39,305 nucleotides of DNA, taken from NCBI GenBank assembly GCA_964356705.1, contig CAYHIN010000002.1, positions 1-39,305 of the forward strand. Direction: 5' to 3'. Made by a program: the position numbers and the translations under genes. This document shows positions 130-38,022 of the stretch, one piece after another. The first letter of the stretch is position 1. Every line of letters starts with the position of its first letter. Below the pieces are notes generated by a model, which was not told where the DNA came from, did not search any database, and saw only the letters and a list, made by a program, of their open reading frames with translations. This DNA is from an uncultured Gammaproteobacteria bacterium. Its GTDB lineage: Bacteria > Patescibacteriota > Microgenomatia > CAZETR01 > Amesbacteraceae.

Positions 130-837
130 CTTAAATAATTTCACTGCATTTTCTGTCGTTATCTTGTCAATTGTATCAATACTTACCCCCCTTGTTTCAG
201 CCAAAACCTTTGCCACCAGCCGTACATTAGCCGGATTGTTTACTGATCCTCGCAAGGGTTCTGGGGCCAGATATGGACTATCTGTTTCTATTAGTAGTCT
301 ATCCTCAGGCACGGCCGAGGCGACCGCTCGCAAATCATGGCTGTTTTTGAAAGTCAGTATCCCCCCAAAACTTATATAACATCCCAGCCCCACAAACTTT
401 TTAGTCCACTCTTGATCTCCTGTCCAACAATGCATTTGGATGCCCCTTAGCACTTCGCGCTTAGCACTTAGCACTGAATACACTTTTTTAAACTGGTTTC
501 GACAGTGGACAACCAGAGGCAATCCAGTTTCTTTGGCGAGTTCAATGTTTACTTTGAATAATTGAACTTCCTCTTCACTATCCGAATCCAGTCCACATTC
601 CCCAATCGCCACCACTTTAGGCTCTTTTGTCATTCTGAGCAGCAGCGAAGAATCCAGTTCTTTACTCATTTCTTCAGGGTGAACTCCCACAGTAGCCCAG
701 ACGTTTGAATGTTTTTGCGCCAGCTCAATCGCCTTCTCGCTGCTCTCAAAATCTGCTCCACAGCAGATCATCTGCAGATCTAGACCTGCCCACATCTCCT
801 CTGGCACTTCATACAAATGACAATGTGCATCAATCAT
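103..837 (-). CDS. tatD: TatD-family metal-dependent hydrolase/DNase
   Basis: 244-aa ORF with MIDAHCHL at the N-terminus. Also carries GVHPEE, AIGECGLD, VVHCR, MHCWTG and ETDSPYL motifs typical of the TatD amidohydrolase fold. TGA stop at 103-105. Confidence 0.9.
   Translation of the reverse strand: MIDAHCHLYEVPEEMWAGLDLQMICCGADFESSEKAIELAQKHSNVWATVGVHPEEMSKELDSSLLLRMTKEPKVVAIGECGLDSDSEEEVQLFKVNIELAKETGLPLVVHCRNQFKKVYSVLSAKREVLRGIQMHCWTGDQEWTKKFVGLGCYISFGGILTFKNSHDLRAVASAVPEDRLLIETDSPYLAPEPLRGSVNNPANVRLVAKVLAETRGVSIDTIDKITTENAVKLFKLDPSLHSG
445..480. repeat. Heptamer-phased cassette (CTTAGCA/CTTCGCG/CTTAGCA/CTTAGCA/CTGAATA) inside tatD
   Basis: Direct reading of 446-480. The first 32 nt (445-476) match 12617-12648 at 28 of 32 positions. 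Confidence 0.85.
629..660. repeat. Hairpin repeat copy inside the tatD CDS
   Basis: GTCATTCTGAGCAGCAGCGAAGAATCCAGTTC aligns base for base with 844-875. The stem arms are ATTCT/AGAAT here versus ATCCT/AGGAT there, a compensatory change. Confidence 0.8.
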
Positions 838-843
838 AGTTTT

Positions 844-875
844 GTCATCCTGAGCATACGCGAAGGATCCAGTTC
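844..875. repeat. Hairpin repeat copy filling most of the metG-tatD intergenic gap
   Basis: GTCATCCTGAGCATACGCGAAGGATCCAGTTC lies between the tatD start (837) and the metG stop (874-876). The proposed stem is ATCCT-GAGC, loop, GCGA-AGGAT. Confidence 0.8.
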
Positions 876-2307
876 ATTTCAATCTCGGAAACAGCGGCTC
901 GCCCGCTTTTATATTTGGTCCTTCAAACTGATTCAATATTTTTTCAGCAGTCGACGGTAGGAACGGTCTCAAATTAAGAGAAATCAGATTTATACTATCC
1001 AAAAGTACTTTCAGTGTTTGAGTGAGCTCGTCTCCTTTTTGTGACCATGGTTTAGTTTGTTCAATAAAAGCATCCGTTTTCCCAATTATCTCCCAGATGT
1101 ATTCTAGAGCTTTATCAAATCTAAATTCTTCTAAGTGTTTGACGATCGCCGGATCCACAAAATCTTTTTTTTCTTTCACAGTTGGAAATTCCTGACCACT
1201 GTTTTCGCATAGCTTTGCAATTCTAGACACCAAATTCCCAAGTCCATTAGCCAGATTGGCATTATATATTTCCTTAAATCTTTCATTTGTGAAATCTCCA
1301 TCTTCCGAGGTGGGGATCTGCGACAACATAAAGTATCTGACAGCTTCCAGCCCAAACTCGTCAGCGAGGTCTTTAGGATGAATCCCATTACCAATCGACT
1401 TACTGATCTTTAGTCCTCCCACAATTACAAAGCTGTGTACAAATACACATTTAGGTAAAGCAATTCCAGCGGATAGCAACATTGCCGGCCAATACACGGT
1501 ATGGAATCGATTGATGTCTTTGCCAATTACATGCACGTCAGCAGGCCACCACTTTTTCCAAAGTGCTTCATCCCATCCATATCCAATTCCTGTCATATAG
1601 ATATTGAGGGCGTCAAACCATACGTAGATCACTTGATTTGGGTCATTTGGCACTGGTACTCCGACGCCCCGTGCTCTTTTCACAGATCTAGATATGCTGA
1701 AGTCCTCAAGACCTGATTTTATAAATGACAGCATTTCAGATTTTTTGTTCTCTGGAGTAATCCGTAATTCTCCACTTTCAATGAGATCAATTAGTTTTTG
1801 TTGGTACTTACTTAGTTTAAAAAAATAATTCTCCTCATCCACTAGTTCTGGTTTCTTTTGGTGTTCCGGACAGATTCCGTCCACAAGCTCCTTCTCAGTC
1901 TTAAAGCTCTCGCAACCCACACAATAATATCCCTTGTAGGTTTTTTTATAGATATCTCCGTTATCAAAGCATAAGTTCCACAGTTTCTGTACCCCTGGCC
2001 AGTGCTTCTCTTGGTCAGACCCTCTCTGAAATACATCTAGAGGTACTCCCAGATCGTTATAAATGTCATGCCAGATTTTGGAATATTTATCTAGATATTC
2101 CTGGGTTGGCAGTCCTTCTTTTTCAGCCGCCTGGACATTTTTCAATGCATTTTCGTCCGCGCCCGAAAGGAGCAATGTCTCTTCGCCCAACAACTGGTGA
2201 TATCTCCGAATTGTGTCCGCCTGAAAATATTCCAAGCTATGCCCCACGTGCGGCGACCCATTCACGTACGGGATCGCAGTCGTAATATAAAACTTTTTTG
2301 TAGTCAC
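874..2307 (-). CDS. metG: Methionyl-tRNA synthetase (short form, no C-terminal tRNA-binding extension)
   Basis: 477-aa ORF with class I HIGH-type motif (PYVNGSPHVGH) and KMSKS-type motif (KISKSIGN). It has a Cys knuckle (CVGC...CPEH) and the conserved WFDAL segment. The start is GTG at 2307. Confidence 0.95.
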   Translation of the reverse strand: MTTKKFYITTAIPYVNGSPHVGHSLEYFQADTIRRYHQLLGEETLLLSGADENALKNVQAAEKEGLPTQEYLDKYSKIWHDIYNDLGVPLDVFQRGSDQEKHWPGVQKLWNLCFDNGDIYKKTYKGYYCVGCESFKTEKELVDGICPEHQKKPELVDEENYFFKLSKYQQKLIDLIESGELRITPENKKSEMLSFIKSGLEDFSISRSVKRARGVGVPVPNDPNQVIYVWFDALNIYMTGIGYGWDEALWKKWWPADVHVIGKDINRFHTVYWPAMLLSAGIALPKCVFVHSFVIVGGLKISKSIGNGIHPKDLADEFGLEAVRYFMLSQIPTSEDGDFTNERFKEIYNANLANGLGNLVSRIAKLCENSGQEFPTVKEKKDFVDPAIVKHLEEFRFDKALEYIWEIIGKTDAFIEQTKPWSQKGDELTQTLKVLLDSINLISLNLRPFLPSTAEKILNQFEGPNIKAGEPLFPRLK

Positions 2308-2861: not shown

Positions 2862-3182
2862 TCAATTGACTAAACTTATCAACCCCACCAAGACCAGTAG
2901 CACCCCAAAGCTTATCCAGTTCAGATACCCGATTCTATTCATGATCAGAAGATACAGTATTGCCAGAGTTACGACCCCTCCCCACTTTTTGCTTTTACAT
3001 ATCCAAGCCGAGAGAAAAAATATCCAGATGGCAACGAGTATCATCACCCCTGTCTCCACCCACATGTTTCCGGGTGGAAGTTTAAATATCAAAATCAGGC
3101 TGACCACAAAGACAACTGCGGCAATACATAGTCCCACAATTTGTCTTTTCTTCGGATCAGCGTTATATTTGTTTCTAGACAT
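2862..3182 (-). CDS. Small membrane protein (three predicted TM helices)
   Basis: This is the C-terminal 106 codons of the 206-aa ORF, starting at MSRNKYNADPKK. The upstream part of that ORF overlaps rmuC and looks non-coding. The start codon choice is uncertain. Confidence 0.45.
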   Translation of the reverse strand: MSRNKYNADPKKRQIVGLCIAAVVFVVSLILIFKLPPGNMWVETGVMILVAIWIFFLSAWICKSKKWGGVVTLAILYLLIMNRIGYLNWISFGVLLVLVGLISLVN

Positions 3183-4032
3183 GAATACTGCCCTTATTCT
3201 AGCAATTATTATCCTCGGCTTTTTAGTCAGTCTGTTTCTTATTCGCAGGTGGCTCACGCAGCCAAAGTCCTCTGATCCTGCGGTAACTTCTTGGCTCTCC
3301 TCAGTCCAGTCTTCTCTAGACAGTTCCACTCGTCTCATGGCCGATGTCCAGCGGTCACTAGGTGAGATGTCCGAGGTGGGCCGCGGCATCAAGTCTCTCC
3401 AGGACTTTCTGGCTTCACCCAAATTGCGGGGTGGTCTAGGGGAAGAGATCTTGTCCCAGATGATCGGCGAGAGTTTTCCCAAAAACGCTTTTCATCTTCA
3501 GTATTCGTTTAAGTCCGGGGTAAAAGTCGATGCGGTCCTCAAGACGGATGCTGGGTTGCTGTGCATTGACTCAAAGTTTCCCACCCAAGAGTTTGTGGTG
3601 TCAGATATCAAAAAGCATATTTCCGATATCGCCAGAAAATATATCCTGCCCGAGGAAGGCACCATGGATTTTGCCCTCATGTATATTCCCTCAGAGAGTA
3701 TTTATTACGAGGTAGTGAGCAGCCGCGAGCTCACCAAGTTTTCCCGCGATCTTAGAGTCTATCCCGTTTCCCCAAACACTCTTTACGCCCATCTTCAGGT
3801 CTTGCTTCAGTCTCTTCAAGGAAAGGAATTGGAGGCCAAGTCTCGCCAGATATTGCAGACTCTGCGCGCCGCCCAAAAAGATTACGATCACCTGACTGAA
3901 AACATGGGAGTCCTCAATCGTCATCTGACCAACGCCTTCAACCAAATGAGTAATGTTAGTAACAGCGCAAACACCCTGGGTCAAAAACTGACCCACACCC
4001 ACATGCTAGAATCTGCTCATGAACAATCTTGA
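3181..4032 (+). CDS. rmuC: DNA recombination protein RmuC (short form)
   Basis: It starts at MNTALILAIIILGF, an N-terminal TM helix as in RmuC proteins. Further RmuC-like motifs are LCIDSKFP, RKYILPEEGTMDFALMYIPSESIYYEV and VYPVSPNTLYAHL. The 5' 453 nt of the track ORF 2728..4032 are rejected as coding. Confidence 0.8.
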   Translation: MNTALILAIIILGFLVSLFLIRRWLTQPKSSDPAVTSWLSSVQSSLDSSTRLMADVQRSLGEMSEVGRGIKSLQDFLASPKLRGGLGEEILSQMIGESFPKNAFHLQYSFKSGVKVDAVLKTDAGLLCIDSKFPTQEFVVSDIKKHISDIARKYILPEEGTMDFALMYIPSESIYYEVVSSRELTKFSRDLRVYPVSPNTLYAHLQVLLQSLQGKELEAKSRQILQTLRAAQKDYDHLTENMGVLNRHLTNAFNQMSNVSNSANTLGQKLTHTHMLESAHEQS

Positions 4033-9390: not shown

Positions 9391-9975
9391 TTATGAACAG
9401 ACCCTAAGACCTGAAAAAAGTTTTAAACCATTCTTTAGGGCAGTCTGCACAAACACTTCTCGATGGTATCGAATAGACCCATGATCGCGGATAGCACAGA
9501 TATGAAATTTGGTTCCATACCCTACATTAGTCACCCAGCCATACTTAGGATGTTTTTCGTGTAGCTTCTTCATCAACCTATCCCGTGTCACCTTGGCGAT
9601 GATCGATGCTGCCATCACTTCTGGATATTTGTTGTCAGCTTTTACGACGCTAGTCGCGCCCTTTATTTTCAAGTTTCCATCCACAATATATTCATCGGCC
9701 CTAACCTGTCTAATCAAACGCCTAAACACTTCCTTATTTGCCCAACCTATTCCTCGACTATTTATTTGTCTCACCGAAATCATTTCTATTTTTACAATTT
9801 CAGCCTTCTCAAAAATCTCATTATATAGTTTCTCTCTCTGTCTCGCCGTTAGTTTCTTTGAATCCTTAAGTTTAGGATTTAGAAATTCGGATTTAGAGTT
9901 TAGTATCACCGCCGCTCCAACTAGCGGGCCCGCGAATGCCCCTCTCCCCACTTCATCCATGCCACAAAACATCAT
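9391..9975 (-). CDS. rnhB: Ribonuclease HII
   Basis: GMDEVGRGAFAGPLVGAAV carries the catalytic DE motif. DSKKLT and ASIIAKVTRD are also present, as is typical of RNase HII. Confidence 0.9.
   Translation of the reverse strand: MMFCGMDEVGRGAFAGPLVGAAVILNSKSEFLNPKLKDSKKLTARQREKLYNEIFEKAEIVKIEMISVRQINSRGIGWANKEVFRRLIRQVRADEYIVDGNLKIKGATSVVKADNKYPEVMAASIIAKVTRDRLMKKLHEKHPKYGWVTNVGYGTKFHICAIRDHGSIRYHREVFVQTALKNGLKLFSGLRVCS
9871..9905. repeat. Heptamer-phased cassette TTTAGGA/TTTAGAA/ATTCGGA/TTTAGAG/TTTAGTA inside rnhB
   Basis: Direct reading of 9871-9905. Confidence 0.75.
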
Positions 9976-10568: not shown

Positions 10569-13373
10569 ATGTCAACAGACTCAAACCAAAAAAACTTCAA
10601 TCCCCAGCAAACTGAGGCCATTCAGCACGGCTCAGGACCACTCCTGATCATCGCCGGCGCGGGCACCGGCAAGACCATGGTTATCACCCAGCGCATCAAA
10701 CATCTGATTGAGTCAGGTCAGGCCAAGTCAGAGGAGATCCTAGCTCTCACTTTTACCGAAAAAGCAGCAAACGAGATGGAGACTCGGGTCGACCAGTTGC
10801 TTCCTCTCGGCTACACCCAGTTATGGATTCTCACCTTTCATTCTTTTTGCGACCGGGTTCTCAGATCCGAAGGCTTACACATCGGCCTGCCCACCGATTA
10901 CGAACTTCTGACCGGCGTCAATTCATTGAGTTTTTTTAAAAAGCATTTCTTTAATTTTGATATCACTTACTTTCGCCCTCTGGGCAATCCCTACAAATTC
11001 ATCGAGGCCCTACTTCAGCATTTCAGCCGTCTCAAAGACGAGGACATTACTCCCGAACAATATTCACATTGGGCCCAAGACAAAGGTGATCCAGAAAAAG
11101 AATTAGCGAAAGTCTTTTCGGATTACGAATCACTGAAAATAAAAGAAGGCAAGCTAGATTTTGGAGATCTGATTACCTGGACTCTCAAGCTCTTTCGTGA
11201 CCGGCCAGAGATTCTGAAAAAATATCAGAAGCAATTTAAATATATTTTGGTCGATGAGTTTCAGGACACAAATTATTCTCAGAATATTTTGGTAAATTTA
11301 TTGGCAGGTAAAGACCAAAATCTCACCGTGGTCGCCGATGATGACCAAGCCATCTACAGATGGCGCGGAGCCGCCGTTTCCAACGTCATTCAATTCAGAA
11401 AAACCTATCCCAATTCAAAATTAGTAGTCCTCACCCAAAACTACCGCAGTACCCAGACTATTTTGGATCATGCCCATGATCTGATCCAGTTCAACAATCC
11501 TGATCGATTAGAAATAATAGAAAAGATAGACAAAAAGTTAACCTCTTCTCGAAAAGCCGTTGGGGAAGAGATCGAGCATCTCCACTTCTCTCACGCCGAG
11601 TCCGAAGCAGATGGCGTCGCGCAAAAAATTGTCTCACTTCTGCAAGAGCCCGGGGCCGAAACTACTCACAACCTACAACCCAAGGACTTTGCAGTCCTTG
11701 TGCGTGCCAACTCCCACGCCCTGCCGTTTATCAAAGCCTTGGAGGCAGCCGGCATTCCCCACCAGTTCCTAGGTCCCAGTAAGCTTCTGGACCGGCCCGA
11801 GATCCGCGATCTTACGGCTCTTCTCCATGTCTTGTCCGATCTGGGTGACGACACCTCTTTCTACCGTATTCTCTCAATGCCCATATTTTCTCATTCACCC
11901 AGGGCTATCGCAGATCTGTCCGCAACGGCCAAAAAAGAAAATCTTTCATTGTTTGTTGCTGCCGAGGAAAATCCCCAGTTCAAGCCCATCACTGATTTGG
12001 TAAATAAATATTTAGGCCTAGTTCGAGAAGCCAGTGCCGGACAAATTATCTACACTTTTTTGCAAGACACTGGTCTTTTAAAGAAAGTCGTAAATTACGA
12101 CTCAAAAGAAGAAGAACAACAAGCTCTAAATATCGTCAGGTTCTTCAACAAATTGAAGTCCGCAGACGGAAGCCTGCAAGAATCATTAGATTGGTTAGAT
12201 CTACTGGCCAGATCCGGGGATTCTCCTCAAGCAGCAGAGGTAGACTGGTCCACCGAAAACGCTGTAAATATCATGACCATCCACTCGGCCAAAGGACTGG
12301 AGTTTCCGGTCGTATTCTTGGTCAGTTTGGTCTCAGGTCGCTTCCCCTCAATTTCACGAAGCGAAACTCTGCCCATCCCAGATGATCTGGTAAAAGAGAT
12401 TTTGCCTGGAGGTGATTTTCATCTCCAAGAAGAGCGCAGGTTGTTTTACGTTGGTATGACCCGTGCCAAAGACAAGCTGTTTTTGACTAGTAGTGATTAC
12501 TACGGTGACGCCAAGCGCCTCCGCAAACCCTCACCATTCATCACTGAAACTCTAGGTAACTCTAGCCATTCAACCATTCAACCATCTAACAATTTCGTTT
12601 TCAAAAAATCAGAAACCCTTAGCACTTCGCACTTGGCGCTTAGCGCTGCTGTAACATATTTAAGTTACAGTCAAATTCAGACCTTCCTCGACTGCCCCTT
12701 GCACTACAAAGCCAAATATCTTTTGCATCTCCCGACTCCACCATCTGCTGCCAGCACTTTTGGCAACGTTATTCACCTGACCCTCAAGCAGTATTACGAG
12801 AAGTATAAGGCAGGTGACAAACCAGACATTGTCGGTCTTCTGGATAAAAACTGGTTATTAGGAGGTTTCGAAAACAAAAAACACGAAGAATTGTACAGAG
12901 CCAAAGGAAAAAAGTTCCTAACAGACTTCGCTACCCACCAGTTTGATCCCCAAAATCTCCCCCTCAAGCTAGAAGAGCCATTCGTTGTGCCATTAAACGG
13001 ATTGAAGATCGGCGGAAAGATAGATCGGGTAGATCAGCTCCCAGGCGGAAAGATAGAGATTATTGATTACAAGACTACTGCCAAGCCTTTGACCCAAAAA
13101 GAGGCAGATCAAAATCTCCAGCTCTCATTTTACGCGTTAGCGGCCACCATGCTGCCCAACTCTCCTTTTGCAAAAAAAGCAGAAGAAGTAGTCCTCAGTC
13201 TCTATTATTTTGAAACCGGCGAAAAAGTGACGACGTCTCGCACGGCAGATCAGTTAGAAGAAGCAAAAAACCAAATTTATGAATATGCCCGCCAGATTAG
13301 CCAGTCAGATTTCAAATGCAACAAATCATTTTATTGTGGAGACTGTGATTTCTTTGAGTTGTGTGACCACTAG
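10569..13373 (+). CDS. UvrD/Rep-type SF1 helicase fused to a C-terminal PD-(D/E)xK (RecB/Cas4-like) nuclease with a Cys cluster
   Basis: Walker A is AGAGTGKT. Helicase motifs include DEFQDTN, QNYRS, IHSAKGLEF and YVGMTRAK. The C-terminal part carries IDRVD, IIDYKT and CNKSFYCGDCDFFELC, an AddB/Cas4-style iron-sulfur-type Cys arrangement. Confidence 0.9.
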   Translation: MSTDSNQKNFNPQQTEAIQHGSGPLLIIAGAGTGKTMVITQRIKHLIESGQAKSEEILALTFTEKAANEMETRVDQLLPLGYTQLWILTFHSFCDRVLRSEGLHIGLPTDYELLTGVNSLSFFKKHFFNFDITYFRPLGNPYKFIEALLQHFSRLKDEDITPEQYSHWAQDKGDPEKELAKVFSDYESLKIKEGKLDFGDLITWTLKLFRDRPEILKKYQKQFKYILVDEFQDTNYSQNILVNLLAGKDQNLTVVADDDQAIYRWRGAAVSNVIQFRKTYPNSKLVVLTQNYRSTQTILDHAHDLIQFNNPDRLEIIEKIDKKLTSSRKAVGEEIEHLHFSHAESEADGVAQKIVSLLQEPGAETTHNLQPKDFAVLVRANSHALPFIKALEAAGIPHQFLGPSKLLDRPEIRDLTALLHVLSDLGDDTSFYRILSMPIFSHSPRAIADLSATAKKENLSLFVAAEENPQFKPITDLVNKYLGLVREASAGQIIYTFLQDTGLLKKVVNYDSKEEEQQALNIVRFFNKLKSADGSLQESLDWLDLLARSGDSPQAAEVDWSTENAVNIMTIHSAKGLEFPVVFLVSLVSGRFPSISRSETLPIPDDLVKEILPGGDFHLQEERRLFYVGMTRAKDKLFLTSSDYYGDAKRLRKPSPFITETLGNSSHSTIQPSNNFVFKKSETLSTSHLALSAAVTYLSYSQIQTFLDCPLHYKAKYLLHLPTPPSAASTFGNVIHLTLKQYYEKYKAGDKPDIVGLLDKNWLLGGFENKKHEELYRAKGKKFLTDFATHQFDPQNLPLKLEEPFVVPLNGLKIGGKIDRVDQLPGGKIEIIDYKTTAKPLTQKEADQNLQLSFYALAATMLPNSPFAKKAEEVVLSLYYFETGEKVTTSRTADQLEEAKNQIYEYARQISQSDFKCNKSFYCGDCDFFELCDH
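12617..12652. repeat. Heptamer-phased cassette CTTAGCA/CTTCGCA/CTTGGCG/CTTAGCG/CTGCTGT in the helicase-nuclease linker
   Basis: Direct reading. It matches the tatD copy at 445-476 at 28 of 32 positions. Confidence 0.85.
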
Positions 13374-14200
13374 ATAGGTAGTCTCCACTTCACAAAGCTG
13401 CCTGCAAACTCAATTTCTTTTCCTCCAAACCCTTTTTTAAATCTGGTAAATCCCAGCCAGCCTTTATTTGGCCATCTGTTGTCGTAAATTCCTTCAAAGT
13501 CCCAGGACTTACATCCCATTTCGCGGGCTTTTTTCATAGCTTCCCATACGACAAGATAAGGCAAGTTATTCTTATTACCTTCTTTTGTAGCCCCTGCATA
13601 ATAGTAGTAGGCGCACTTGTCATGCATTAGTACCAAAGCCCCTGCATTGTTATCAATGCAGACCGAAAACACCTTTTCTCCAAAGCATTGGATCAGAGCG
13701 TCATAATCTTTTTTACTGGGTATCCACAGACTTTTTCTTTTGGACGATTTTTTCCATATTTCATAAAAACTGTCAAACTGATTCAACTTAATTGAAAACT
13801 GTAAACTCTTACTTGAAAACTTTCTCAGCGTATATCGGCAGTCCTTACTGAACAACTGCATGATTTTTTCTTCACTCGGCCTCAAGTCTACTCGTAAAGT
13901 TTTACTAGCAAGTAGCGGCCAATTATCCTGGCGAAATCCGGTTGATTGTCCAGAAAGAGGCTCCACCTTACACATCATCACTCTATTCTTTTTCAGTATC
14001 TCACTCAGATCTGGCAGTGGCATATTCACTCTCTGGATCTTGGCAATACTCACTGGTCCTAGTGTTCTAACAAATAACTGAAAACTGTTACCTGAATCCT
14101 GAAAACTTATCGTTTTCCACCCAATCCTCTCCATATATCTCCCATACTCATCAGATTGTCTCAAGTCCTGTATTACTTCAAAATCCTTAGCATTTTCCAT
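13370..14200 (-). CDS. FemAB-family peptidoglycan aminoacyltransferase
   Basis: YYYAGATKEGNKNNLPYLVVWEAMKKAREMGCKSWDFEGI resembles the FemX/FemAB C-terminal GNAT-like core. Its stop overlaps the helicase stop through the sequence CTAG. Confidence 0.8.
   Translation of the reverse strand: MENAKDFEVIQDLRQSDEYGRYMERIGWKTISFQDSGNSFQLFVRTLGPVSIAKIQRVNMPLPDLSEILKKNRVMMCKVEPLSGQSTGFRQDNWPLLASKTLRVDLRPSEEKIMQLFSKDCRYTLRKFSSKSLQFSIKLNQFDSFYEIWKKSSKRKSLWIPSKKDYDALIQCFGEKVFSVCIDNNAGALVLMHDKCAYYYYAGATKEGNKNNLPYLVVWEAMKKAREMGCKSWDFEGIYDNRWPNKGWLGFTRFKKGFGGKEIEFAGSFVKWRLPI
13764..13826. repeat. Three-unit 21-nt periodic cassette (GAAAACT/AAACT phased) inside FemAB gene 1
   Basis: TTGAAAACT occurs at 13792 and 13813, 21 nt apart. 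AAAACTGTCAAACT (13766) resembles AAAACTGTAAACT (13795). On the minus strand the region encodes FSSKSLQ/FSIKLNQ/FDSFYEI. Confidence 0.7.
14078..14112. repeat. Heptamer-phased cassette CTGAAAA/CTGTTAC/CTGAATC/CTGAAAA/CTTATCG inside FemAB gene 1
   Basis: Direct reading. It shares the 10-mer TGAAAACTGT with 13793-13802. Confidence 0.8.
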
Positions 14201-15114
14201 CTTATCTCTTCCACAAGTCTAAATAATTTATACAGCAGGGGATTGACTGGCAAATCATAAGTCCCCACCATTTCCATAAGCTTGGGTCCAAACTGCACCT
14301 TAAATCTCGCAAACCCTTTTCCTTCTTCTGTCCCCCACAGATCCAGCGTTTCATAACCAGATTTCTTGCCCCACCTGATTATTTCCCACAATCCCAGGAC
14401 TGGCGCCATGACATTTTTGTAATCATCATCAAAAGCCCCGTAAGCGTAATAGATAAATTTATCCCAAGCAAACACCATCCACACGGCAATTATCTTGTCT
14501 TGATAAGTCGCTTTAAATAAATGAACAAAAGAAAGTTTTGCTAGCTCTCGGTGATATTTTTCAGAATGAGCATAAATCTTTTGTCTTTTGGTCGTCTTTC
14601 CAAACATGAGTAGTAAATAATCTTCAATGCAATCTTTATCTTCAGATATTTCCACACCATGTTTCTGCGACAAGCGAATGTTATACCTTGTCTTCGGGTG
14701 CATATTTTTTTGCAGCTCTTCTTCACTTTGTGTGAGATCAATCCAAAAAGTCTTAGGCTTAAACAAATGCCTCCCAGGTTTCAAAATACTTGATACTTTA
14801 TACGTGATACTTGATACATGGTTAGGTTCAAACCTAATGCCTAGGCCATTCTCCTTAATCGCTTCATTACTTAATAACTTAATGTCTTTTTGTGTTGGTA
14901 CGGGACTCATGGGGCAATATCCAAACCAAAGATTTGTCGGCTTTATCTTCGTCCACATAATCAGATATTGGTTTTCACCCTCGATCCTCGATACCTTATT
15001 CCCCATCTTCTCGCGAAACTCACCCCACTCAAGACCCTGCATCGGATGTCTGATCGCTATGTCCCAATTCCCACTCACCCCAAAATTATAACTTCCCCCA
15101 AGCCAACACGCCAT
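14173..15114 (-). CDS. FemAB-family peptidoglycan aminoacyltransferase (paralog)
   Basis: IYYAYGAFDDDYKNVMAPVLGLWEIIRWGKKSGYETLDLWG is FemAB-like. The N-terminal segment aligns with that of the neighbouring paralog. ATG start at 15114. Confidence 0.8.
   Translation of the reverse strand: MACWLGGSYNFGVSGNWDIAIRHPMQGLEWGEFREKMGNKVSRIEGENQYLIMWTKIKPTNLWFGYCPMSPVPTQKDIKLLSNEAIKENGLGIRFEPNHVSSITYKVSSILKPGRHLFKPKTFWIDLTQSEEELQKNMHPKTRYNIRLSQKHGVEISEDKDCIEDYLLLMFGKTTKRQKIYAHSEKYHRELAKLSFVHLFKATYQDKIIAVWMVFAWDKFIYYAYGAFDDDYKNVMAPVLGLWEIIRWGKKSGYETLDLWGTEEGKGFARFKVQFGPKLMEMVGTYDLPVNPLLYKLFRLVEEIRWKMLRILK
14786..14820. repeat. Heptamer-phased cassette ATACTTG/ATACTTT/ATACGTG/ATACTTG/ATACATG inside FemAB gene 2
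   Basis: Direct reading. On the minus strand it encodes VSSITYKVSSI. Confidence 0.85.
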
Positions 15115-17225: not shown

Positions 17226-17243
17226 AGTACTTTTGTGGGAGAT

Positions 17244-18110: not shown

Positions 18111-18232
18111 CTCGCTACAACATCAAATATGAACGATCCGAATAAGAAAATCAAGATTCAAACCCTTCAGTTAATCCTCTGGGCTCCATTTCCAGTTACC
18201 AGATTCATCAAAACCACACCCGTACTCACAGC

Positions 18233-21625: not shown

Positions 21626-21634
21626 AAAAGTCCA

Positions 21635-22579
21635 ATGAAGATTAACAAAGTTCCTCTACTAATTCTAGGCTTGATAATTACTGTTTTTATAGGCATTTAT
21701 TATTTCACCCAAAAAAGTCCCATCATCCCCGGATCAGGCGTCACAGACCTACCCATTACTCCCTCCCAGGCCGCCATCAATATTTTAGTTTTAGGTATCG
21801 GCGGCGGAAGCCACCAGTCACCTGACCTTACCGATACTATTATCTTCACCTCTCTTAGTATCAAGGCCAATACTATTACCACCGTCTCCATCCCTCGTGA
21901 TGTCTGGATCCCCAAGCTCTCCGCCAAGATCAACTCTGCCTATCACTCGGGAGGTCTCAGTCTGGCCAAGTCGGTAGTCGCAGAGTTTGTCGGTCAAAGC
22001 ATTCATTATGCTTTGGTCTTAGACTTCTCGACTTTTGTAAAAGCCATCGACCAACTGGGTGGTATTGATGTCGATGTGGAAAATACTTTTACGGACGGCC
22101 AATACCCAATTGCCGGCCGCGAAAACGATCTCTGCGAAGGCGATCCCACTTACGCCTGTCGTTATGAGCAGATTACTTTTACCAAAGGTGATACTCACAT
22201 GAATGGGGAGGCTGCCCTCAAGTTCGTCCGTTCCCGTCACTCGGCAGATCCAGTGGAGGGTACTGACTTTGCCAGATCAAAGCGCCAATCAAAGGTCATC
22301 ACCGCTTTTCAAAAGAAATTGTTATCCTCACCAAAATCTTTCTCCGCACTTTACAATCTCGCCTCCACTTCTATTAAAACAGATATCCCAAAAAGCCAGA
22401 TCTTGCCCCTTAGTAATTTTTTATTCCAAAACCGCCAAAACTCCATTCGCTCCTACGCAGTTAGCGAGCCAGAGCACTTGTATCACCCGCTCAACATGCG
22501 CCCATATTCCGGTCAGTGGGTACTGGTCCCAAACTCTCCGGATTCTATTACTAAGTACATAAGTAGTATCCTCAAATAA
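21635..22579 (+). CDS. LytR-CpsA-Psr (LCP) family protein
   Basis: An N-terminal TM helix is followed by INILVLGIGGG, DLTDTIIFTS, VSIPRDVWI and ALKFVRSRH motifs. ATG 21635 is preferred over the TTG at 21620. Confidence 0.85.
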   Translation: MKINKVPLLILGLIITVFIGIYYFTQKSPIIPGSGVTDLPITPSQAAINILVLGIGGGSHQSPDLTDTIIFTSLSIKANTITTVSIPRDVWIPKLSAKINSAYHSGGLSLAKSVVAEFVGQSIHYALVLDFSTFVKAIDQLGGIDVDVENTFTDGQYPIAGRENDLCEGDPTYACRYEQITFTKGDTHMNGEAALKFVRSRHSADPVEGTDFARSKRQSKVITAFQKKLLSSPKSFSALYNLASTSIKTDIPKSQILPLSNFLFQNRQNSIRSYAVSEPEHLYHPLNMRPYSGQWVLVPNSPDSITKYISSILK

Positions 22580-24668
22580 TTTCGTACACTCGAGTCTGTC
22601 CGGACTCATATATCACTCGACCCAATTTTCCAAACTTTTTTTCATCCAGAGTCGGATATTTCTGCCTTTCCCCGCTTCCCACTATGACCAGCCTTACATC
22701 GTATTTTTTTAGGATAGTTTGAGCCACGTTTACGTCTGTTGTTTCATAGACATCTCTGACTTCTTGGGTTCTTTTGGCAATCACGTCGTATCCTCTCCAT
22801 AGCCATTCATGCACCAGCCACCCGCCGACCGTCGGCGCTCCCGAAAAAGCCGAGATTCTATTTGCATCAGTATAGCTGTCTCCCGAAGCCTCGAGGATCA
22901 CTGGCATTTTTCCTGGTGGGTAATTTTTCTCAATCAGTTTTACGATTTCAAAGTCTTCCGGGTATCTGGTTTCAAACCACTCGAGTCCATACAGGCCTTG
23001 ATGATTTTTCAGTCCCCCAAAATACGATTTCACGGCAAAATATGGATAAATACCAATTAAAAAGACCAGCGGCAGTACTCCCAGTTTGTACCACTTGCTC
23101 TGAGTGGTCGCGACCACATACCCCGAGATAATGGACATAAGTATAAATACCTGATACCCCAGCTTAAACATAGTGTTGCTCCTAAAGTGCATCGGATAAA
23201 TATCCTTAAAGTAGAAAAACTCCGGGAAAATAATCAGCCCCAAACAAAACAAACTAATTACTAAAAATATCTTATTAACTGGGTTTTGTGTCTTGAGTCT
23301 TGAGTCTTGTAGCCACAATGCGGCAGCATTGTAGGCGAAGAATCCCCACAGCAACAGCATCATCCAGATGGGGGACCTTTGACATTTGTCGACCGTCTCA
23401 AAGACAATTGGTCCGATCTTTTGATTGGCCAAGAAAGCCGGTGGACAATTGACTGCTAGTCCCGATACAAATGGCTCAAAGTTCAAAACAAACGGCGATA
23501 TTGTAATCCCAAAGGAAACAAAAACAATCAACAACTTAACCATATGTCCATATAGCAATCTTCTGTCAAACAATTCGCGTCCGTATTTCCATACATATAG
23601 TAGTCCAAACAGTCCAGCATATATCAGTCCATCCAAGGCATTGGTCATAAACATGAGTCCGGTCAGTATTCCAAATACGACCATCTTCGTCTTATCTATT
23701 TTTCCCAGGGCATACATTTCGAAAATCATTGCAATCCCGAGTAGTACCAGAGGAATATCCAGTACATGCCCGTGCATATCTGAGACTACAAATGAGTAAG
23801 ACGGAAATTCATGGATTGTGTACGGGATAAATCTCGTTGCGTTTGGATACCAATATGAGTTCCAGCCCACCGAAGTAGGCTGCCAAATTTTCCAAAAAGG
23901 TGGAGGCTCGTCCCCACTATATCCAGACGTAAACGCATATATAGTCTGCAGATTTCCCGACAGTGCCACAAAAAAGATAGTCAACATCACCCCCGCCCAC
24001 TTTTTATCACCGCGCAAATGCCGCAGCAGTCTAAGTGCCATGCTTGCTACCATCGAGACTGTCAAGGCAAAAGTAGACGCCAGCATTAGGTTAAATCCAT
24101 ACGCCAGGTCTACCCCCGATATCCGGGACACAATCGCCATCATCAAATGTCCAAAGTAGTAGTAATTAATCGGCTTCCCTGTATACCACATGTCAGCCGG
24201 GGGGAAGTATTCGCTATGTAATATCGATTTGGTAAATCCATAGTCCATAAATTTCTCTAGTCCATTTATCGAGGGCTCATGTGCTTTTACCCACGCCCAT
24301 GTTAGTAGTGCTAGTCCAAAAAACACCTCACACAAAATCAGCTTTTTCCAGGCCACAGACACTTTAGTATTTCTTACATATCCCACCACTCCCACAATCC
24401 CCGCGATCGCAAGTGTTGTCACCAGACTGAACGGCACAATTCTCAATGATCCCAATACCCAAGCTACCAGTGCTACTATTCCCAGTCCAAACGCTTTTGC
24501 CAGCATATAGCCCTGATCTGGCCAATTTGAAAAAAAACGTTTACAGTACCCAAATCCCACCACCCCAAAAAACCACCACGCCACCCACCACTGCAAGGTC
24601 AACACTATATCTGACGCCATAAAGTAAATTATAATCAAAACTTGTGAAAAAGTATTTGGCATTCTCAA
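22572..24668 (-). CDS. DUF2298 'YYY' multi-pass membrane protein (GT-C-like)
   Basis: 698-aa ORF with many TM helices and the signature PINYYYFGH. The start is uncertain; alternatives are 24662 and 24620. Confidence 0.75.
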   Translation of the reverse strand: MRMPNTFSQVLIIIYFMASDIVLTLQWWVAWWFFGVVGFGYCKRFFSNWPDQGYMLAKAFGLGIVALVAWVLGSLRIVPFSLVTTLAIAGIVGVVGYVRNTKVSVAWKKLILCEVFFGLALLTWAWVKAHEPSINGLEKFMDYGFTKSILHSEYFPPADMWYTGKPINYYYFGHLMMAIVSRISGVDLAYGFNLMLASTFALTVSMVASMALRLLRHLRGDKKWAGVMLTIFFVALSGNLQTIYAFTSGYSGDEPPPFWKIWQPTSVGWNSYWYPNATRFIPYTIHEFPSYSFVVSDMHGHVLDIPLVLLGIAMIFEMYALGKIDKTKMVVFGILTGLMFMTNALDGLIYAGLFGLLYVWKYGRELFDRRLLYGHMVKLLIVFVSFGITISPFVLNFEPFVSGLAVNCPPAFLANQKIGPIVFETVDKCQRSPIWMMLLLWGFFAYNAAALWLQDSRLKTQNPVNKIFLVISLFCLGLIIFPEFFYFKDIYPMHFRSNTMFKLGYQVFILMSIISGYVVATTQSKWYKLGVLPLVFLIGIYPYFAVKSYFGGLKNHQGLYGLEWFETRYPEDFEIVKLIEKNYPPGKMPVILEASGDSYTDANRISAFSGAPTVGGWLVHEWLWRGYDVIAKRTQEVRDVYETTDVNVAQTILKKYDVRLVIVGSGERQKYPTLDEKKFGKLGRVIYESGQTRVYEII
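23284..23311. repeat. Tandem heptamer TCTTGAG x2 plus TCTTGTA (preceded by TTTTGTG) inside the DUF2298 gene
   Basis: Direct reading of 23291-23311 shows a 14-nt exact tandem duplication. Confidence 0.9.
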
Positions 24669-26167
24669 TCTTTGCCATTTGGCTCATGTTTTCCACCCTC
24701 TCTTACGTGAATGGCGAATTCCGCGTCTCATCAAAAGTTTGGAGTGACTTTGGCGCCGCCATCCCCCTCATGCGCTCCTTCTCCCAAGGGCAAAATTGGC
24801 CTCCAGAGCACCCGCTCTTCCCCGGCGAACCCATTAGATATCACTATTTGTTTTACCTAGGCGCAGGCCTGCTTGAGCGAGCGGGTCTCAGACCCGACCT
24901 CGCCCTAAATCTACTCAGCACAATTGGTTTTTTTGGCCTCATGACATTGGTTTACAAATTGGCCGGGCATCTCTTTGGCAAAAAAGCCTCCCTTATAGCC
25001 GTCGTATTTCTGATCTTCAATAGTTCATTCTCCTTCGTCGATTATTTTGCAGATCGGGGACTATCCCTCAAATCACTCATGGCTGTTCCTTTTCAGACCG
25101 AGTTTGCCTCCTTTTATCCCTGGAGGGAGTCAAAAGTCGCTGCATTCTGGAACCTAAATATCTATACCAACCAGCGCCATCTGGCCTTTTCATACGCCAT
25201 AGTTTTACTGATTATCTATATAAACTACGCTCGCCCCAGATATCTCTGGCTCACAGGTATATTGCTGGCAACTCTGGCTTCTCTAAACCAAGCCGCTTTA
25301 TTGATTGCCATAATTTATCTTTTTTTCCTATGTATCCAAAACAGGCACTTGTGGAAGACTTATTTATTCTCGGCTCTCTTAGGGCTGCCGTTTTTATACC
25401 CTTATTTATTTATGTCTCATGTTCCGCCCCAGATTTTATTTCATCCGGGGTTTATCACCCAAAACCCTCTTCGTTTCTGGTTATTCAATCTCGGTCTCCA
25501 CTTCTTTTTTATACCTATTGGTTTTCTTTTTGCCTCAAAAAAGATGTCCTCTCTCGTCTTTGGCACCATAGTCACATTTCTTCTCGCAAATCTCTACCAG
25601 TTCTCTCCCGATATGTTCAACAATCATAAGTTCATAAACTTTGCCGTCATTATAGGCTCCATGTTCACCGCAGGTCTCATCATAAAATTCAAGCCGGCAA
25701 TACGTTATACGTTATACATAATACTTATTTTGGGTGGTCTCTTTGATATCTTTCCTATTATCAACGACAGAAAAGTAATACTGTCCGACCGACACACAAA
25801 CCCGGACATTCAGTTTTACAGTACTCTTCCTCGAAAATCAGTCGTCCTCAACAGCACCTGGTTTTATCACCCAGCCAGTATCGCCGGACTGCCAATTTTT
25901 AACGGCTACTCTTACTTTACTTGGTCATATGGCTACGACCAAAGACAAAGGGAGAAAGAGGCGATGACTATATATGCCTCGCCCAACAAACCCACCGCTT
26001 GCTCATTATTGCTGGAAAACAACATCTCTTACGTCGAGCTCAATCCTCATCACGAAGGGTTCTTACAGCCAAACTACTCACTCTGGTCAAATGAATTTGC
26101 AAAAGTTTATACCAATCCTGAAACTGAAACGACAGTTTACTCCGTTGCAAAATCATGCACAAGTTAA
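24644..26167 (+). CDS. Multi-pass membrane protein, GT-C glycosyltransferase-like
   Basis: 507-aa ORF with 10 or more TM helices. A conserved loop PGEPIRYHYLFY is followed by a C-terminal soluble domain. The GTG start overlaps the divergent DUF2298 ORF. Confidence 0.6.
   Translation: MKKYLAFSIFAIWLMFSTLSYVNGEFRVSSKVWSDFGAAIPLMRSFSQGQNWPPEHPLFPGEPIRYHYLFYLGAGLLERAGLRPDLALNLLSTIGFFGLMTLVYKLAGHLFGKKASLIAVVFLIFNSSFSFVDYFADRGLSLKSLMAVPFQTEFASFYPWRESKVAAFWNLNIYTNQRHLAFSYAIVLLIIYINYARPRYLWLTGILLATLASLNQAALLIAIIYLFFLCIQNRHLWKTYLFSALLGLPFLYPYLFMSHVPPQILFHPGFITQNPLRFWLFNLGLHFFFIPIGFLFASKKMSSLVFGTIVTFLLANLYQFSPDMFNNHKFINFAVIIGSMFTAGLIIKFKPAIRYTLYIILILGGLFDIFPIINDRKVILSDRHTNPDIQFYSTLPRKSVVLNSTWFYHPASIAGLPIFNGYSYFTWSYGYDQRQREKEAMTIYASPNKPTACSLLLENNISYVELNPHHEGFLQPNYSLWSNEFAKVYTNPETETTVYSVAKSCTS
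25700..25727. repeat. Heptamer-phased cassette ATACGTT/ATACGTT/ATACATA/ATACTTA
   Basis: Direct reading. This is a weaker case because it rests on a single exact 7-nt duplication. Confidence 0.55.
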
Positions 26168-36219: not shown

Positions 36220-36225
36220 TAAAAT
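36220..36225 (+). promoter_or_regulatory. -10 box TAAAAT located 6 nt before the lepA ATG (leaderless geometry)
   Basis: The sequence reads TAAAAT-agcttc-ATG directly. Confidence 0.4.
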
Positions 36226-36231
36226 AGCTTC

Positions 36232-38022
36232 ATGCAGAATATCCGTAACTTCGCCATTATTGCCCACGTGGATCATGGCAAATCGACACTGGCCGATCGA
36301 TTGTTAGAGATTACTGGAACGGTTCAAATGCGCGATATGCAAGCCCAGCTTCTAGATAGCAATCCCATCGAAAGAGAGCGGGGGATCACGATCAAGCTGG
36401 CCCCTGTTCGTATGCATTATCAGGGATATATCTTAAATCTTATCGATACCCCAGGTCACGTCGATTTTGCTTATGAAGTGAGCAGATCTCTGGCCGCCTG
36501 TGAAGGCGCCATTCTTTTGGTGGACGCCACCCAGGGAGTCCAGGCCCAGACTCTGGCCCACTACAACCAAGCCAAAAAACTAAATCTCACGATTATCCCC
36601 GTCATCAACAAAATCGATATCACGATAGCCGACGTCGAAAGTTCACTAGCCCAGATGCAGGACATCCTGGGTTTCTCCGAAGATGAAATTCTCAAAATCT
36701 CAGGAAAAACGGGCGAGGGCGTTATCGAATTGTTACAAGTAGTCATCGACCGCATCCCTCCGCCCACACTACCTATCTCACTACCCACTACTCACGACGC
36801 ACCCTTACAAGCATTGGTTTTCAATTCCAATTACGATTCTCATCTTGGCGTCATCGCCTGGGTCAGGCTTTATTCCGGTACTCTGAAAAAACAAGACAAG
36901 TTGTATCTTCTGGCTACTCGAGCAACTACAACCGCCATCGAAATCGGAGTCTTTTCTCCCACCAAAAAACCCATAGATAGAATAAACGCTGGCGAAGTCG
37001 GCTACGTCGTCACCGGCCTGCGTGATCTATCCGAACTTACAACTGGAGATACACTTACAACCGAAAACTCACAACTTACAACTGCATTACCGGGTTACAT
37101 CCCAGCCAAGCCCGTGGTCTTCGTAAGTTTCTATCCCACCGATGGCGCCGATATTCACTTGTTGCATCAGGCTTTAGATAAGCTCAAGCTCCAGGATAGT
37201 GCTCTTATCTATACTCCCGAGTTTTCACCAGCTCTTGGCAACGGTTTTCGCGTAGGTTTACTGGGCCTCTTGCACGCCGATGTCGTCCAAGAGCGTCTCG
37301 AGAGGGAATTCAATCTGAGTCTTATAGCAGCCGCCCCCTCAGTCAGTTATGAGATCGAGATGGCAAATGGCGCAACAATTGAGATTTCCAAAGCCATGGA
37401 TTTACCAGACCCGTCTGAGATCAATCAGATCAAAGAGCCAATTATCGCTTTATCGATTTTCGTTCCCGACAATTTCACCGGTCCGGTCATGCAGCTGTGC
37501 CAAAATCACCGGGGGACTCTCCAAAATATGGATTACAAAGGCCAGATCGTAAATTTGCACTATCTCATGCCTTTGTCCGAGCTCATCAAGCAGTTTTACG
37601 ACACACTGAAGAGTGTATCGCAGGGCTTTGCCACTCTAGATTATGAATTGATAGGTTACGAGCCAGCCGATCTTGTTCGTTTAGACATCTTAATAGCGGG
37701 AGACAAGATTGACGCCCTGTCTCAGATTCTTCCTCGGGCCCAAGTCGACCATCTCGCCAAGGGTTTAGTCGAAAAACTAAAAGATATTATCCCCAGGCAA
37801 AATTTTGAAGTGGCTATCCAAGCCGCCATCGGTGGAAAAATTCTAGCCAGAGCCGATATCAAATCTTTTAGAAAGGACGTCCTGGCCAAGATGTCCGGTG
37901 GCGATCAGACTCGAAAAGACAAGTTGCTGAAAAAACAAAAAAAAGGCAAATCCCGCATGAAGCACGTGGGTCGTATCGACATCCCCCAAGAAGCATTCCT
38001 AAGTATCTTGAAGATCGATTAA
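36232..38022 (+). CDS. lepA: Translation elongation factor 4 (LepA)
   Basis: IRNFAIIAHVDHGKSTL (G1), DTPGH, NKID and the LepA-specific C-terminal domain are present. Length is 596 aa. Confidence 0.97.
   Translation: MQNIRNFAIIAHVDHGKSTLADRLLEITGTVQMRDMQAQLLDSNPIERERGITIKLAPVRMHYQGYILNLIDTPGHVDFAYEVSRSLAACEGAILLVDATQGVQAQTLAHYNQAKKLNLTIIPVINKIDITIADVESSLAQMQDILGFSEDEILKISGKTGEGVIELLQVVIDRIPPPTLPISLPTTHDAPLQALVFNSNYDSHLGVIAWVRLYSGTLKKQDKLYLLATRATTTAIEIGVFSPTKKPIDRINAGEVGYVVTGLRDLSELTTGDTLTTENSQLTTALPGYIPAKPVVFVSFYPTDGADIHLLHQALDKLKLQDSALIYTPEFSPALGNGFRVGLLGLLHADVVQERLEREFNLSLIAAAPSVSYEIEMANGATIEISKAMDLPDPSEINQIKEPIIALSIFVPDNFTGPVMQLCQNHRGTLQNMDYKGQIVNLHYLMPLSELIKQFYDTLKSVSQGFATLDYELIGYEPADLVRLDILIAGDKIDALSQILPRAQVDHLAKGLVEKLKDIIPRQNFEVAIQAAIGGKILARADIKSFRKDVLAKMSGGDQTRKDKLLKKQKKGKSRMKHVGRIDIPQEAFLSILKID
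37035..37089. repeat. Phased cassette with ACTTACAAC x3 (offsets 18 and 21 nt) inside lepA
   Basis: Copies start at 37035, 37053 and 37074. The region encodes LTTGDT/LTTENSQ/LTTALPG. Confidence 0.85.

Follow-up and report, generated by a model that had tools for sequence, protein, structure and literature searches.

The question raised by this locus is why a series of unrelated genes should each carry, in frame, a short run of seven-nucleotide units that are variants of one another. The DNA concerned, referred to here as the window, comprises 39,305 nt of contig CAYHIN010000002.1, has a G+C content of 44%, and is 96% coding. Judging from its LepA and PcrA sequences, the window derives from a groundwater member of Candidatus Amesbacteria (Microgenomates, within the Candidate Phyla Radiation, CPR), and the matches that carry a name are Amesbacteria. 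The initial annotation reported heptamer cassettes dispersed in frame through unrelated genes on both strands; this description holds, and every sequence it quoted is present at the position given. About a dozen cassettes exist in the window, roughly 20 to 30 times the expected level. We regard them as probably, though by no means surely, degenerate heptanucleotide microsatellites that arise by local out-of-register copying and are then filtered by reading frame, stop codons, and protein constraint.

Detection of the cassettes relied on two statistics. The first counts clusters in which four successive units match at 70% or more for a chosen lag, and at period 7 it found 10 clusters versus 0.26 expected when codons were permuted within genes and 0.44 when synonymous codons were shuffled with the proteins kept; none of 500 shuffles of either kind reached 10. 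The second requires that five units agree with their column consensus at 27 or more of 35 positions. It also gave 10 clusters, versus 0.12 expected and a maximum of 2 among 300 shuffles, and it recovered the rnhB cassette at 9871 (score 29), which the lag statistic misses. By the lag statistic, the window shows no excess at periods 5, 6, and 9 to 14, and 2 clusters versus 0.07 at period 8. Half of the tandem repeats reported by Tandem Repeats Finder (9 of 18) have a period of 7, with 2.7 to 4.6 copies and 70 to 94% matches. Recurrence of exact 7-mers is in excess at lags 7, 14, and 21 only, with 14 versus about 4.3 at lag 21 and 6 versus about 2.6 at lag 7. When 12 cassettes amounting to about 2% of the window are masked, the global lag-7 z-score falls from 3.1 to 1.4, and the signal therefore resides in discrete cassettes, not in a diffuse periodicity. 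The longest perfect lag-7 run in the window is 2.9 units, and long perfect tracts are absent. The proposal that codon usage cannot generate the period is thus borne out by the synonymous shuffle.

These figures leave almost no credence to the idea that the cassettes are chance matches picked by eye or artefacts of assembly. Two weak matches at 14979-15006 and 22807-22840 are of the kind such an idea predicts, and a third region, 13764-13826, is only weakly periodic at 7 nt; the first two fall below threshold, lie within conserved sequence, and were discarded as chance. Neither the 500 nor the 300 shuffles reach the observed counts, the open reading frames (ORFs) are intact, and a like excess is seen in many independent metagenome-assembled genomes of the lineage. 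An independent Hainich groundwater assembly supplies a 6.7-kb contig (L085) that matches window positions 17190-23927 at 99.96% identity with no indel, all three mismatches falling outside the cassettes, which excludes an assembly artefact.

The cassettes are housed in genes for TatD, RNase HII, a UvrD-type helicase-nuclease, two FemAB paralogs, PcrA, a DUF2298 membrane protein, a membrane protein without a Pfam match, and LepA. In tatD (minus strand) the cassette spans 441-484, with about 4.3 copies of a unit that reads CTTAGCA on the plus strand (score 30/35); it encodes YSVLSAKREVLR and aligns without gaps to a weakly conserved helix and loop that follow the HxR motif in solved TatD structures. 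The rnhB cassette (9869-9905, minus strand) is made up of five TTTAGNA units (29/35) encoding ILNSKSEFLNPK, in a variable loop that is 2 to 4 aa longer than in the orthologs of loci L082-L084. The helicase-nuclease gene carries a near-copy of the tatD cassette at 12613-12652 (plus strand; CTTAGCA, 3.9 copies; LSTSHLALSAAV), at the 1st percentile of conservation. FemAB gene 1 (minus strand) has two cassettes. The one at 14076-14112, with unit CTGAAAA, encodes ISFQDSGNSFQ and is a 4- to 8-aa insertion relative to orthologs. The other, placed by the initial annotation at 13764-13826, is present, but a heptamer periodicity is not its main feature; at 13789-13826 it is mainly a 21-nt echo, TTGAAAACT...TTGAAAACT, encoding FSSKSLQFSIKLNQ, and at 26/35 it is the weakest of the set. 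FemAB gene 2 (minus strand) contains the strongest, 14782-14823, with 4.6 copies of ATACTTG (32/35) encoding HVSSITYKVSSI.

Two cassettes lie in pcrA (minus strand): 20352-20391, with four sense units CAAATCN encoding LQIANLNSQIPS in a hypervariable loop, and 20609-20643, with four sense units CARRATT encoding SKIQDSGFNK in a loop of variable length. The second had not been listed before. The DUF2298 gene (minus strand) has 2.9 perfect copies of TCTTGAG in a variable loop; here the array had been given as 23291-23311, and with its degenerate flanking units it reaches 23277-23315. This cassette is identical in L085. In the gene for the 507-aa membrane protein, earlier called a GT-C gene and lacking a Pfam match, 4.3 copies of ATACGTT at 25695-25731 (plus strand) encode AIRYTLYIILIL. 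Finally, lepA (plus strand) has a previously unlisted cassette at 36775-36804, in the linker between the G domain and domain II (four units CNCACNA; ISLPTTHDAP), and a second at 37035-37089 between the GDT and ALPG motifs, where CTTACAAC occurs three times at 21-nt spacing with a 7-nt sub-period and encodes LTTGDTLTTENSQLTTAL. The peptide echoes noted at the outset, VSSITYK-VSSI, LTTENSQ-LTTAL, and FSSKSLQ-FSIKLNQ, are all present.

All of these cassettes are in frame within intact, ordinary chromosomal ORFs, at relative gene positions that range inconsistently from 0.11 to 0.73. Their placement within the protein is much more regular. When each protein is aligned with its orthologs, the cassettes coincide with the least conserved 1 to 17% and are over-represented opposite gaps. 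The other orthologs also agree poorly with one another at the cassette columns, between the 1st and 18th percentiles of identity (Fisher p = 1.7e-7), so the assignment to variable segments is not circular. A filter at the level of the stop codon is evident as well. Where the unit contains a stop triplet (tatD, rnhB, and the helicase-nuclease), the deviant unit is in all three cases the one in which TAA or TAG would otherwise fall in frame; in tatD, the variant CTTCGCG occupies the position at which TAA would be in frame. The initial annotation had drawn attention to the identity of the first and fourth heptamers. That identity is real, yet it does not represent a special architecture, as it follows from codon phase, which units three apart have in common, together with the deviation of the unit that would otherwise bear an in-frame stop; the 7-residue echoes follow from the same codon phase.

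Could selection for 7-residue repeats in the protein, as heptads or low-complexity linkers, combine with codon bias to yield the periodicity as a by-product? The 7-residue echoes are what this would produce, the LepA peptide LYTLNLI by itself reads as about three quasi-heptamers in AT-rich codons, and S, T, N, Q, and I are over-represented in the cassette peptides. Shuffling synonymous codons while preserving the protein nevertheless removes the signal, which brings the idea close to refutation and discounts protein heptad repeats as the source. Moreover, with a period of 7 nt the successive copies of a unit pass through all three frames and specify different residues in each, the synonymous sites are homogenised, the hosts are unrelated enzymes and membrane proteins, and the orthologous loops of relatives lack both echo and periodicity. 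We therefore hold a protein-level origin to be very unlikely.

Comparison with relatives reveals how quickly the cassettes come and go. The LepA sequences compared are those of L001 (93% identity over residues 19-596, an upstream stretch being masked), L166 (87% by BLASTP and 92% in a multiple alignment), and L002 (73%); for PcrA the closest relative is L081, at 87% amino acid identity, and the gene order around pcrA is kept in L082-L084. At pcrA 20352-20391 the cassette is absent from L081, whose loop has equal length, while the L083 loop is periodic; the 20609-20643 cassette is also absent from L081. The FemAB gene 2 cassette is absent from L083, where the orthologous site is not periodic (lag-7 identity 0.16) and is 2 to 3 aa shorter. 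In lepA, L166 has the 37035-37089 cassette (37056) and L001 lacks it. Across the Microgenomates cassettes with an alignable ortholog, many orthologs are non-periodic (lag-7 identity 0.16 to 0.36), fall below the identity of their flanks, and contain indels; others share the cassette at about flank identity. Shared cassettes give no general signal of purifying selection at the nucleotide level, their identity being about that of the flanks, a comparison that carries ascertainment bias. Relatives differ by replacement and small indels rather than by whole units, and L085, from the same population, shows no differences of either sort in its cassettes.

The initial annotation had read the lepA cassette as overwriting sequence rather than lengthening the gene. 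For 37035-37089 this is correct, as the length equals that in L001, L007, L009, L014, and L048, but it does not extend to all cassettes, since net insertions are seen in rnhB (+2 to +4 aa), FemAB gene 1 (+4 to +8), FemAB gene 2 (+2 to +3), and lepA 36775 (+5). The 37035-37089 cassette also reveals the level at which the units become alike. The LTT codons are CTT ACA ACY in all three repeats of the window and CTA ACG ACC, CTG ACT ACT, and GTG ACA GTC in L001, with L166 intermediate between the two. Homogenisation thus acts on the DNA, through synonymous codons. At the lepA linker, 36775, the units are (CAAATCC)5 in L004 and L005 and (CNCACNA)n in L003, L008, the window, and L001, at equal length.

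A further case of rewriting is provided by the lepA β-hairpin that precedes YxLNLIDTPGH. In L019, L022, L026, L029, and L059 this hairpin has its normal length and reads as 4 to 5 heptamers that co-vary within each genome, with four perfect ACTTTAC units in L026. The heptamers carry on from a conserved seed, TLNLI (ACTTTAA ACTTAAT), a sign that they arose locally, and the whole looks like in-place rewriting with homogenisation. Other relatives have additional sequence at the same hairpin. An in-frame insertion of about 32 to 37 aa occurs in L166 (about 3400-3500), L004 (4287-4392), and L018 (10187-10290), and is made up of two inverted heptamer arrays, (AAATYCG)n and its complement, with the peptide KIRNSKHEI...EFRNSD.EF.DS. 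It is found in L166 and in distant Microgenomates, is absent from the window and L001, and in this patchiness resembles a Rickettsia palindromic element. The L004 insertion folds into a long RNA hairpin that is not significant relative to shuffles (z = -1.7). In the lepA gene of L010 (3178-5166), the GDT-(A)LPG/LEG linker contains an in-frame insertion reading ...VIPAKAGIQ..., which is a translated common GC-rich hairpin repeat, and the β-hairpin carries a separate insertion with two heptamer arrays (3363-3396 and 3414-3452). In this lineage, the LepA loops seem to form a hotspot at which repeats insert in frame. In the window, the 3' end of tatD has three tandem copies of about 20 to 21 nt at 61-130, extending into the last codons and starting GTCATCCTGA(A/G), the last of which is GTCATCCTGAGTGAAGCGAAGGATCC. 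This is a widespread palindromic element of the 'GTCATTCTGAGCGAAGCGAAGAATC' type, and an in-frame copy of it (VILSEAKN) lies in the LepA hairpin of L038.

The distribution of the trait was followed by counting period-7 clusters against codon shuffles in all fetched loci. Beside the 10 observed versus 0.35 expected in the window, there were 2 versus 0.2 in L001, 6 versus 0.23 in L083, 4 versus 0.12 in L084, 10 versus 0.5 in the Amesbacteria-like loci L003-L008, and 33 versus at most 7 in other Microgenomates (Daviesbacteria, Levyibacteriota, Cerribacteria, and others). Controls behaved differently, with 1 versus 0.2 in Saccharibacteria (rated as no excess), 2 versus 1.5 in Dehalococcoidia/Chloroflexota, 5 versus 4 in Actinomycetota, 15 versus 10.8 in Elusimicrobiota, and 11 versus 8.9 in Spiroplasma. 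In 837 kb of mixed metagenome controls, which are matches that a scan with the Microgenomates LepA alignment made on universal GTPase motifs in unrelated bacteria (about 50% identity), the 31 period-7 and 14 period-8 clusters stand in the ratio expected by chance. Exact tandem 7-mer duplications number 46 in Microgenomates versus 14.7 expected, and 41 versus 49 in Elusimicrobiota. As the excess recurs at most of the Microgenomates loci sampled and not in the controls, it belongs to the lineage and not to the genes; it is a heritable property of Microgenomates genomes, unevenly spread within the lineage.

Of the origins offered by the initial annotation, slippage or template switching fits these observations best. 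During replication or repair synthesis, the nascent strand would re-pair 7 (or 14 or 21) nt out of register, and the misaligned strand would then either add units or copy a short patch off the neighbouring unit and realign. Selection would retain frame-keeping changes alone, favouring the 21-nt spacing, and any unit with TAA or TAG in frame would have to be substituted. The products would be tolerated in the least constrained surface segments of the protein alone, and the arrays would later decay or be rewritten, leaving most of them lineage-specific. Misaligned synthesis as the enzymatic step is inferred here, as is the reason why the register should be 7 nt. A version of this scheme in which perfect arrays simply expand by three units at a time is disfavoured, on account of the frequency of stop-containing units and the size of the insertions given below. 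Two octamer arrays adjoin heptamer cassettes, namely 12559-12598 (plus strand; CCATTCAA, 2.5 perfect copies), which lies in a linker of the UvrD-helicase/PD-(D/E)XK nuclease gene directly upstream of 12613-12652, and 14852-14897 in FemAB gene 2 (minus strand; CTTAATAA, 3.8 copies). Tetramer repeats in the window also show a weak excess (25 versus about 10 expected). Together these suggest a general tendency to short tandem duplication with a peak at 7.

Several observations weigh against local out-of-register copying as the full explanation. The period of 7 itself is not accounted for by a slippage model. The net insertions, at +2 to +8 aa, are not multiples of 7 aa. Units that contain a stop triplet are no rarer than expected (19 of 56 versus about 16), and so perfect arrays of at least three units cannot be the usual birth state; the arrays were probably built stepwise by templated patches and not born as perfect tracts. 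No polymorphism in copy number or sequence is apparent, the sole independent assembly of the population being identical over three cassettes. The lepA cassette at 36775 is common to the window, L001, and L166 and is 97% identical, compared with 75% in its flanks. One Amesbacteria genome (CAZFGX010000001.1, sampled over 44 kb as L002 and L082) has no period-7 cluster, where its relatives have 2 to 3 per 10 kb. Cassettes at different loci form two near-identical pairs, and these are the longest dispersed direct repeats of the window. Lastly, Microgenomates cassettes are poor in G on the coding strand, where G makes up 11% of their bases versus 22% of those in the flanks; 41 cassettes have more C than G and 13 more G than C (p = 2e-4), in either gene orientation, and neutral slippage would not predict such a bias. 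Two simple causes of the G depletion were rejected. A stop-free filter raises C and leaves G at 22%, which removes avoidance of stop codons. The composition of loops is not responsible, as the cassettes in the window host genes have 13.8% G and the other variable segments of the same genes 22.9%. A common 'CTTnnnn' motif on the plus strand, as a possible replication-strand or primase signal, was rejected as well, since the bias tracks the coding strand and not the chromosome strand and no motif other than base composition came to light.

A dependence on gene orientation that loop composition and stop avoidance fail to explain is what would be expected if the cassettes were selected elements, that is, phased arrays in mRNA or DNA, each unit of which would be contacted by a protein whose footprint is about 7 nt, and which would be placed where the encoded sequence permits. 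Heptad arrays do serve as binding sites, as the omega-repressor heptads illustrate. The binding proteins might be of the cold-shock-domain or S1 type, acting on G-poor unstructured RNA, or ribbon-helix-helix proteins on contiguous 7-bp heptads, candidates which are as improbable as the array itself. A further precedent is the TAACTGA repeat, proposed as a site for S1, Csp, or CsrA (PMC4679880). Some cassettes are in addition conserved above their flanks, as at 36775 and in the CTATGAA cassette, whose third codon positions are conserved across four genomes, and the lepA hairpin cassette persists over several Microgenomates classes. The units differ from cassette to cassette, though, with no shared motif beyond base composition, and no single factor could read them all. 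Most cassettes are missing from the orthologous site in the nearest relatives and fall below their flanks in conservation, their place is in the least constrained segments with no consistent position in the gene, and one related genome lacks them. Absence of a shared unit, rapid turnover among close relatives, and location in the least constrained segments likewise tell against the phased binding array that the initial annotation had suggested as a second origin. Taken together, we find a selected array quite unlikely.

The paired cassettes raise the separate possibility that patches of about 30 to 50 nt spread between loci, their heptamer periodicity being inherited from the donor. One pair consists of 444-491 in tatD and 12616-12663 in the helicase-nuclease gene, with 77% identity over 48 nt in genes of opposite orientation; its first 27 nt fit a 27-nt pattern with three N that is found nowhere else in the window and in 0.00 shuffles. 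The other pair (13789-13822 and 14075-14108, 76% over 34 nt) lies within one FemAB gene, in different reading frames. Unit similarity between cassettes is also raised, with 54 near-identical pairs versus 31.8 +/- 5.7 in composition-matched shuffles, and the unit ACGTTAT of cassette 25695-25731 recurs once in the lepA gene of L006 and twice in L083. The near-identical pairs hint at a preference for certain units or at occasional ectopic short-patch copying. Spread could occur where stray single-stranded DNA recombines illegitimately, in short patches, at replication forks, or through a miniature in-frame selfish element akin to Rickettsia palindromic elements (RPEs), routes which share the low standing of the idea as a whole. 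The patchy in-frame insertions in the lepA hairpin of relatives, with inverted arrays in L166, L004, and L018 and palindromic ones in L038 and L010, agree with mobility, and TfoX and PilN/PilO-type proteins encoded in the window are compatible with DNA uptake. Against this, most window cassettes have no partner, the CTTAGCA-type pattern occurs in none of 84 fetched loci, and the window ORFs include no transposase, integrase, or reverse transcriptase. In many cassettes the existing sequence is replaced without a change of length, the lepA hairpin heptamers extend a local seed, and the excess of unit similarity is partly orthology. The window cassettes are direct repeats without inverted partners in the window, which also lacks a long repeat pair of the variable-region type. 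Mobile patches are thus an unlikely source. The G-poor bias, the paired and conserved cassettes, the absence from L002 and L082, and the unexplained period of 7 are the reasons why functional arrays and mobile patches both survive at low probability.

The same observations admit a stronger form of the copying explanation, which we put forward tentatively and as doubtful. Microgenomates may possess an active, lineage-specific copying process beyond ordinary slippage, with a 7-nt register and a bias tied to the coding strand, that repeatedly rewrites in place the least constrained coding segments and occasionally pastes a patch of about 30 nt into a distant gene. If this were true, it would constitute a distinct mutational mechanism and a source of protein-loop novelty that requires no reverse transcriptase, and its on/off distribution (none in 44 kb of CAZFGX01) should indicate the replication or repair gene responsible.

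Returning to local out-of-register copying, it is necessary to place the cassettes among known heptamer systems. According to the summaries in PMC4679880 and PMC4692102, the survey of Mrázek, Guo, and Shah (2007) showed that heptanucleotides outnumber the other classes of long simple repeat in most prokaryotes. Polymerase slippage was proposed as the cause, 7 nt being the length of DNA that the enzyme holds. The suggestion in the initial annotation that no equivalent is known was accordingly too strong, since heptanucleotide over-representation and slippage were published in 2007 and TAACTGA arrays within ORFs have been described. To the extent that these summaries describe them, the 2007 repeats resemble the cassettes in their tandem 7-nt units, in the variety of unit sequences, and in a period of 7 that stands above periods 5 to 11. 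They are nevertheless long, mostly perfect, and mostly intergenic, and those in coding sequence favour units that are multiples of three. The cassettes are short (3 to 5 units, at most 2.9 perfect copies), degenerate, and located in conserved housekeeping genes; about 86% lie wholly within coding sequence, in a genome that is about 93 to 96% coding, and the CPR lineage is outside the 2007 survey. They are best filed as a coding-sequence variant of that over-representation. We found no report in the literature of heptamer repeats in CPR or Patescibacteria.

Other heptamer systems differ further. The short tandemly repeated repetitive (STRR) sequences of cyanobacteria and the G-rich repeats of Nostoc and Xanthomonas (GGGGAYT and GGGAATC; PMC4692102) are also heptanucleotide tandem arrays and sometimes form inverted pairs, as do L018 3037-3151 and the lepA insertion of L004, L018, and L166. 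They consist, however, of one or a few fixed units per genome and are long, intergenic, and G-rich with G-quadruplex potential, in cyanobacterial or xanthomonad hosts, whereas the cassettes are diverse, G-poor, and all within ORFs of a Candidatus Amesbacteria-like host. Tandem pairs of CCCCAGT, TTGGTCA, CAACAGT, GGGGAYT, or GGGAATC are absent from both strands of the window. TAACTGA direct repeats are known from Beggiatoaceae, cyanobacteria, and Bacteroidetes (MacGregor 2015, PMC4679880). Their sets of 2 to 6 heptamers, some in ORFs and reading in reverse orientation as LSVISYQ at the protein periphery, are comparable to the cassettes, but the system uses a single fixed unit, mostly just upstream of starts, and is proposed to be regulatory, in contrast to many units in internal loops. 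In the window TAACTGA occurs five times singly and never as a tandem pair. Heptads of the omega type bound by ribbon-helix-helix proteins (WATCACW, in promoter arrays) give no tandem pair in the window either, and the cassettes are intragenic with differing units.

The in-frame behaviour of the cassettes recalls the RPEs, which are reportedly palindromic elements of 100 to 150 bp that form one family and are true in-frame insertions. In both cases, repetitive DNA is tolerated in frame within essential genes with the fold undisturbed, and the lepA hairpin insertions of L166, L004, L018, L038, and L010 fit this description. The window cassettes are instead 28- to 55-nt direct repeats, mostly unrelated to one another (two pairs share sequence), and often replace existing sequence. 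Contingency loci, the phase-variable simple repeats that include heptanucleotides in Haemophilus, are likewise found in or beside genes and arise and change by slipped-strand mispairing (PMC2651432, PMC8262952). They depend on long perfect tracts whose copy number switches frame or promoter spacing, typically in surface or virulence genes; the cassettes are degenerate, locked in frame, and located in housekeeping genes (tatD, rnhB, pcrA, and lepA), with no variation in L085. Diversity-generating retroelements require a reverse transcriptase and a pair of template and variable repeats that differ specifically at adenines; the window ORFs have no reverse transcriptase domain, and no long repeat pair is present.

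Statistically the feature is very strong. Its probable mechanism is an ordinary one, and what is unusual is the density of the cassettes, their location in essential genes, their restriction to a lineage, and their composition bias on the coding strand. If mutational in origin, they are a readable footprint of replication or repair failure in an uncultured, genome-reduced lineage. The 7-nt repeat bias of prokaryotes has been known since 2007 and its mechanism never explained; a cassette-rich lineage with at least one apparently cassette-free relative makes the matter testable through comparative gene content and population sequencing. The cassettes also show a route by which the surface loops of LepA, PcrA, and RNase HII gain new sequence in the CPR. 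Care must be taken when such genes are used as markers, since low-complexity, lineage-specific segments may mislead alignments and phylogenies of genes such as lepA.

Some further arrays and features were observed in the window and its relatives. In L018, (TGAGAAG)n at 3037-3073 and (TTCTCAC)n at 3120-3151 form an inverted heptamer pair about 50 nt apart; the first array is intergenic and the second overlaps the start or end of an ORF, a layout like that of the inverted GGGAATC repeats of Xanthomonas. A near-perfect five-unit array (AACTGAC GACTGAC CACTGAC AACTGAC AACT...) lies at 10944-10984 of L166, within a methyltransferase gene. In the window, four genes stand between pcrA and the FemAB pair (15144-19731), encoding a LamG/NHL-repeat protein, an unknown protein, a Bro-N domain protein, and a methyltransferase. 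In L082-L084 pcrA directly adjoins the FemAB pair, and the interval is likely an island of about 4.6 kb; no cassette was detected within it, and L085 covers its pcrA-proximal part (window 17190-19731). The plus strand of the window contains 10035 C and 7361 G (GC skew about -0.15), with T in excess of A, and this skew exceeds what the 56/44 split in gene orientation would account for.

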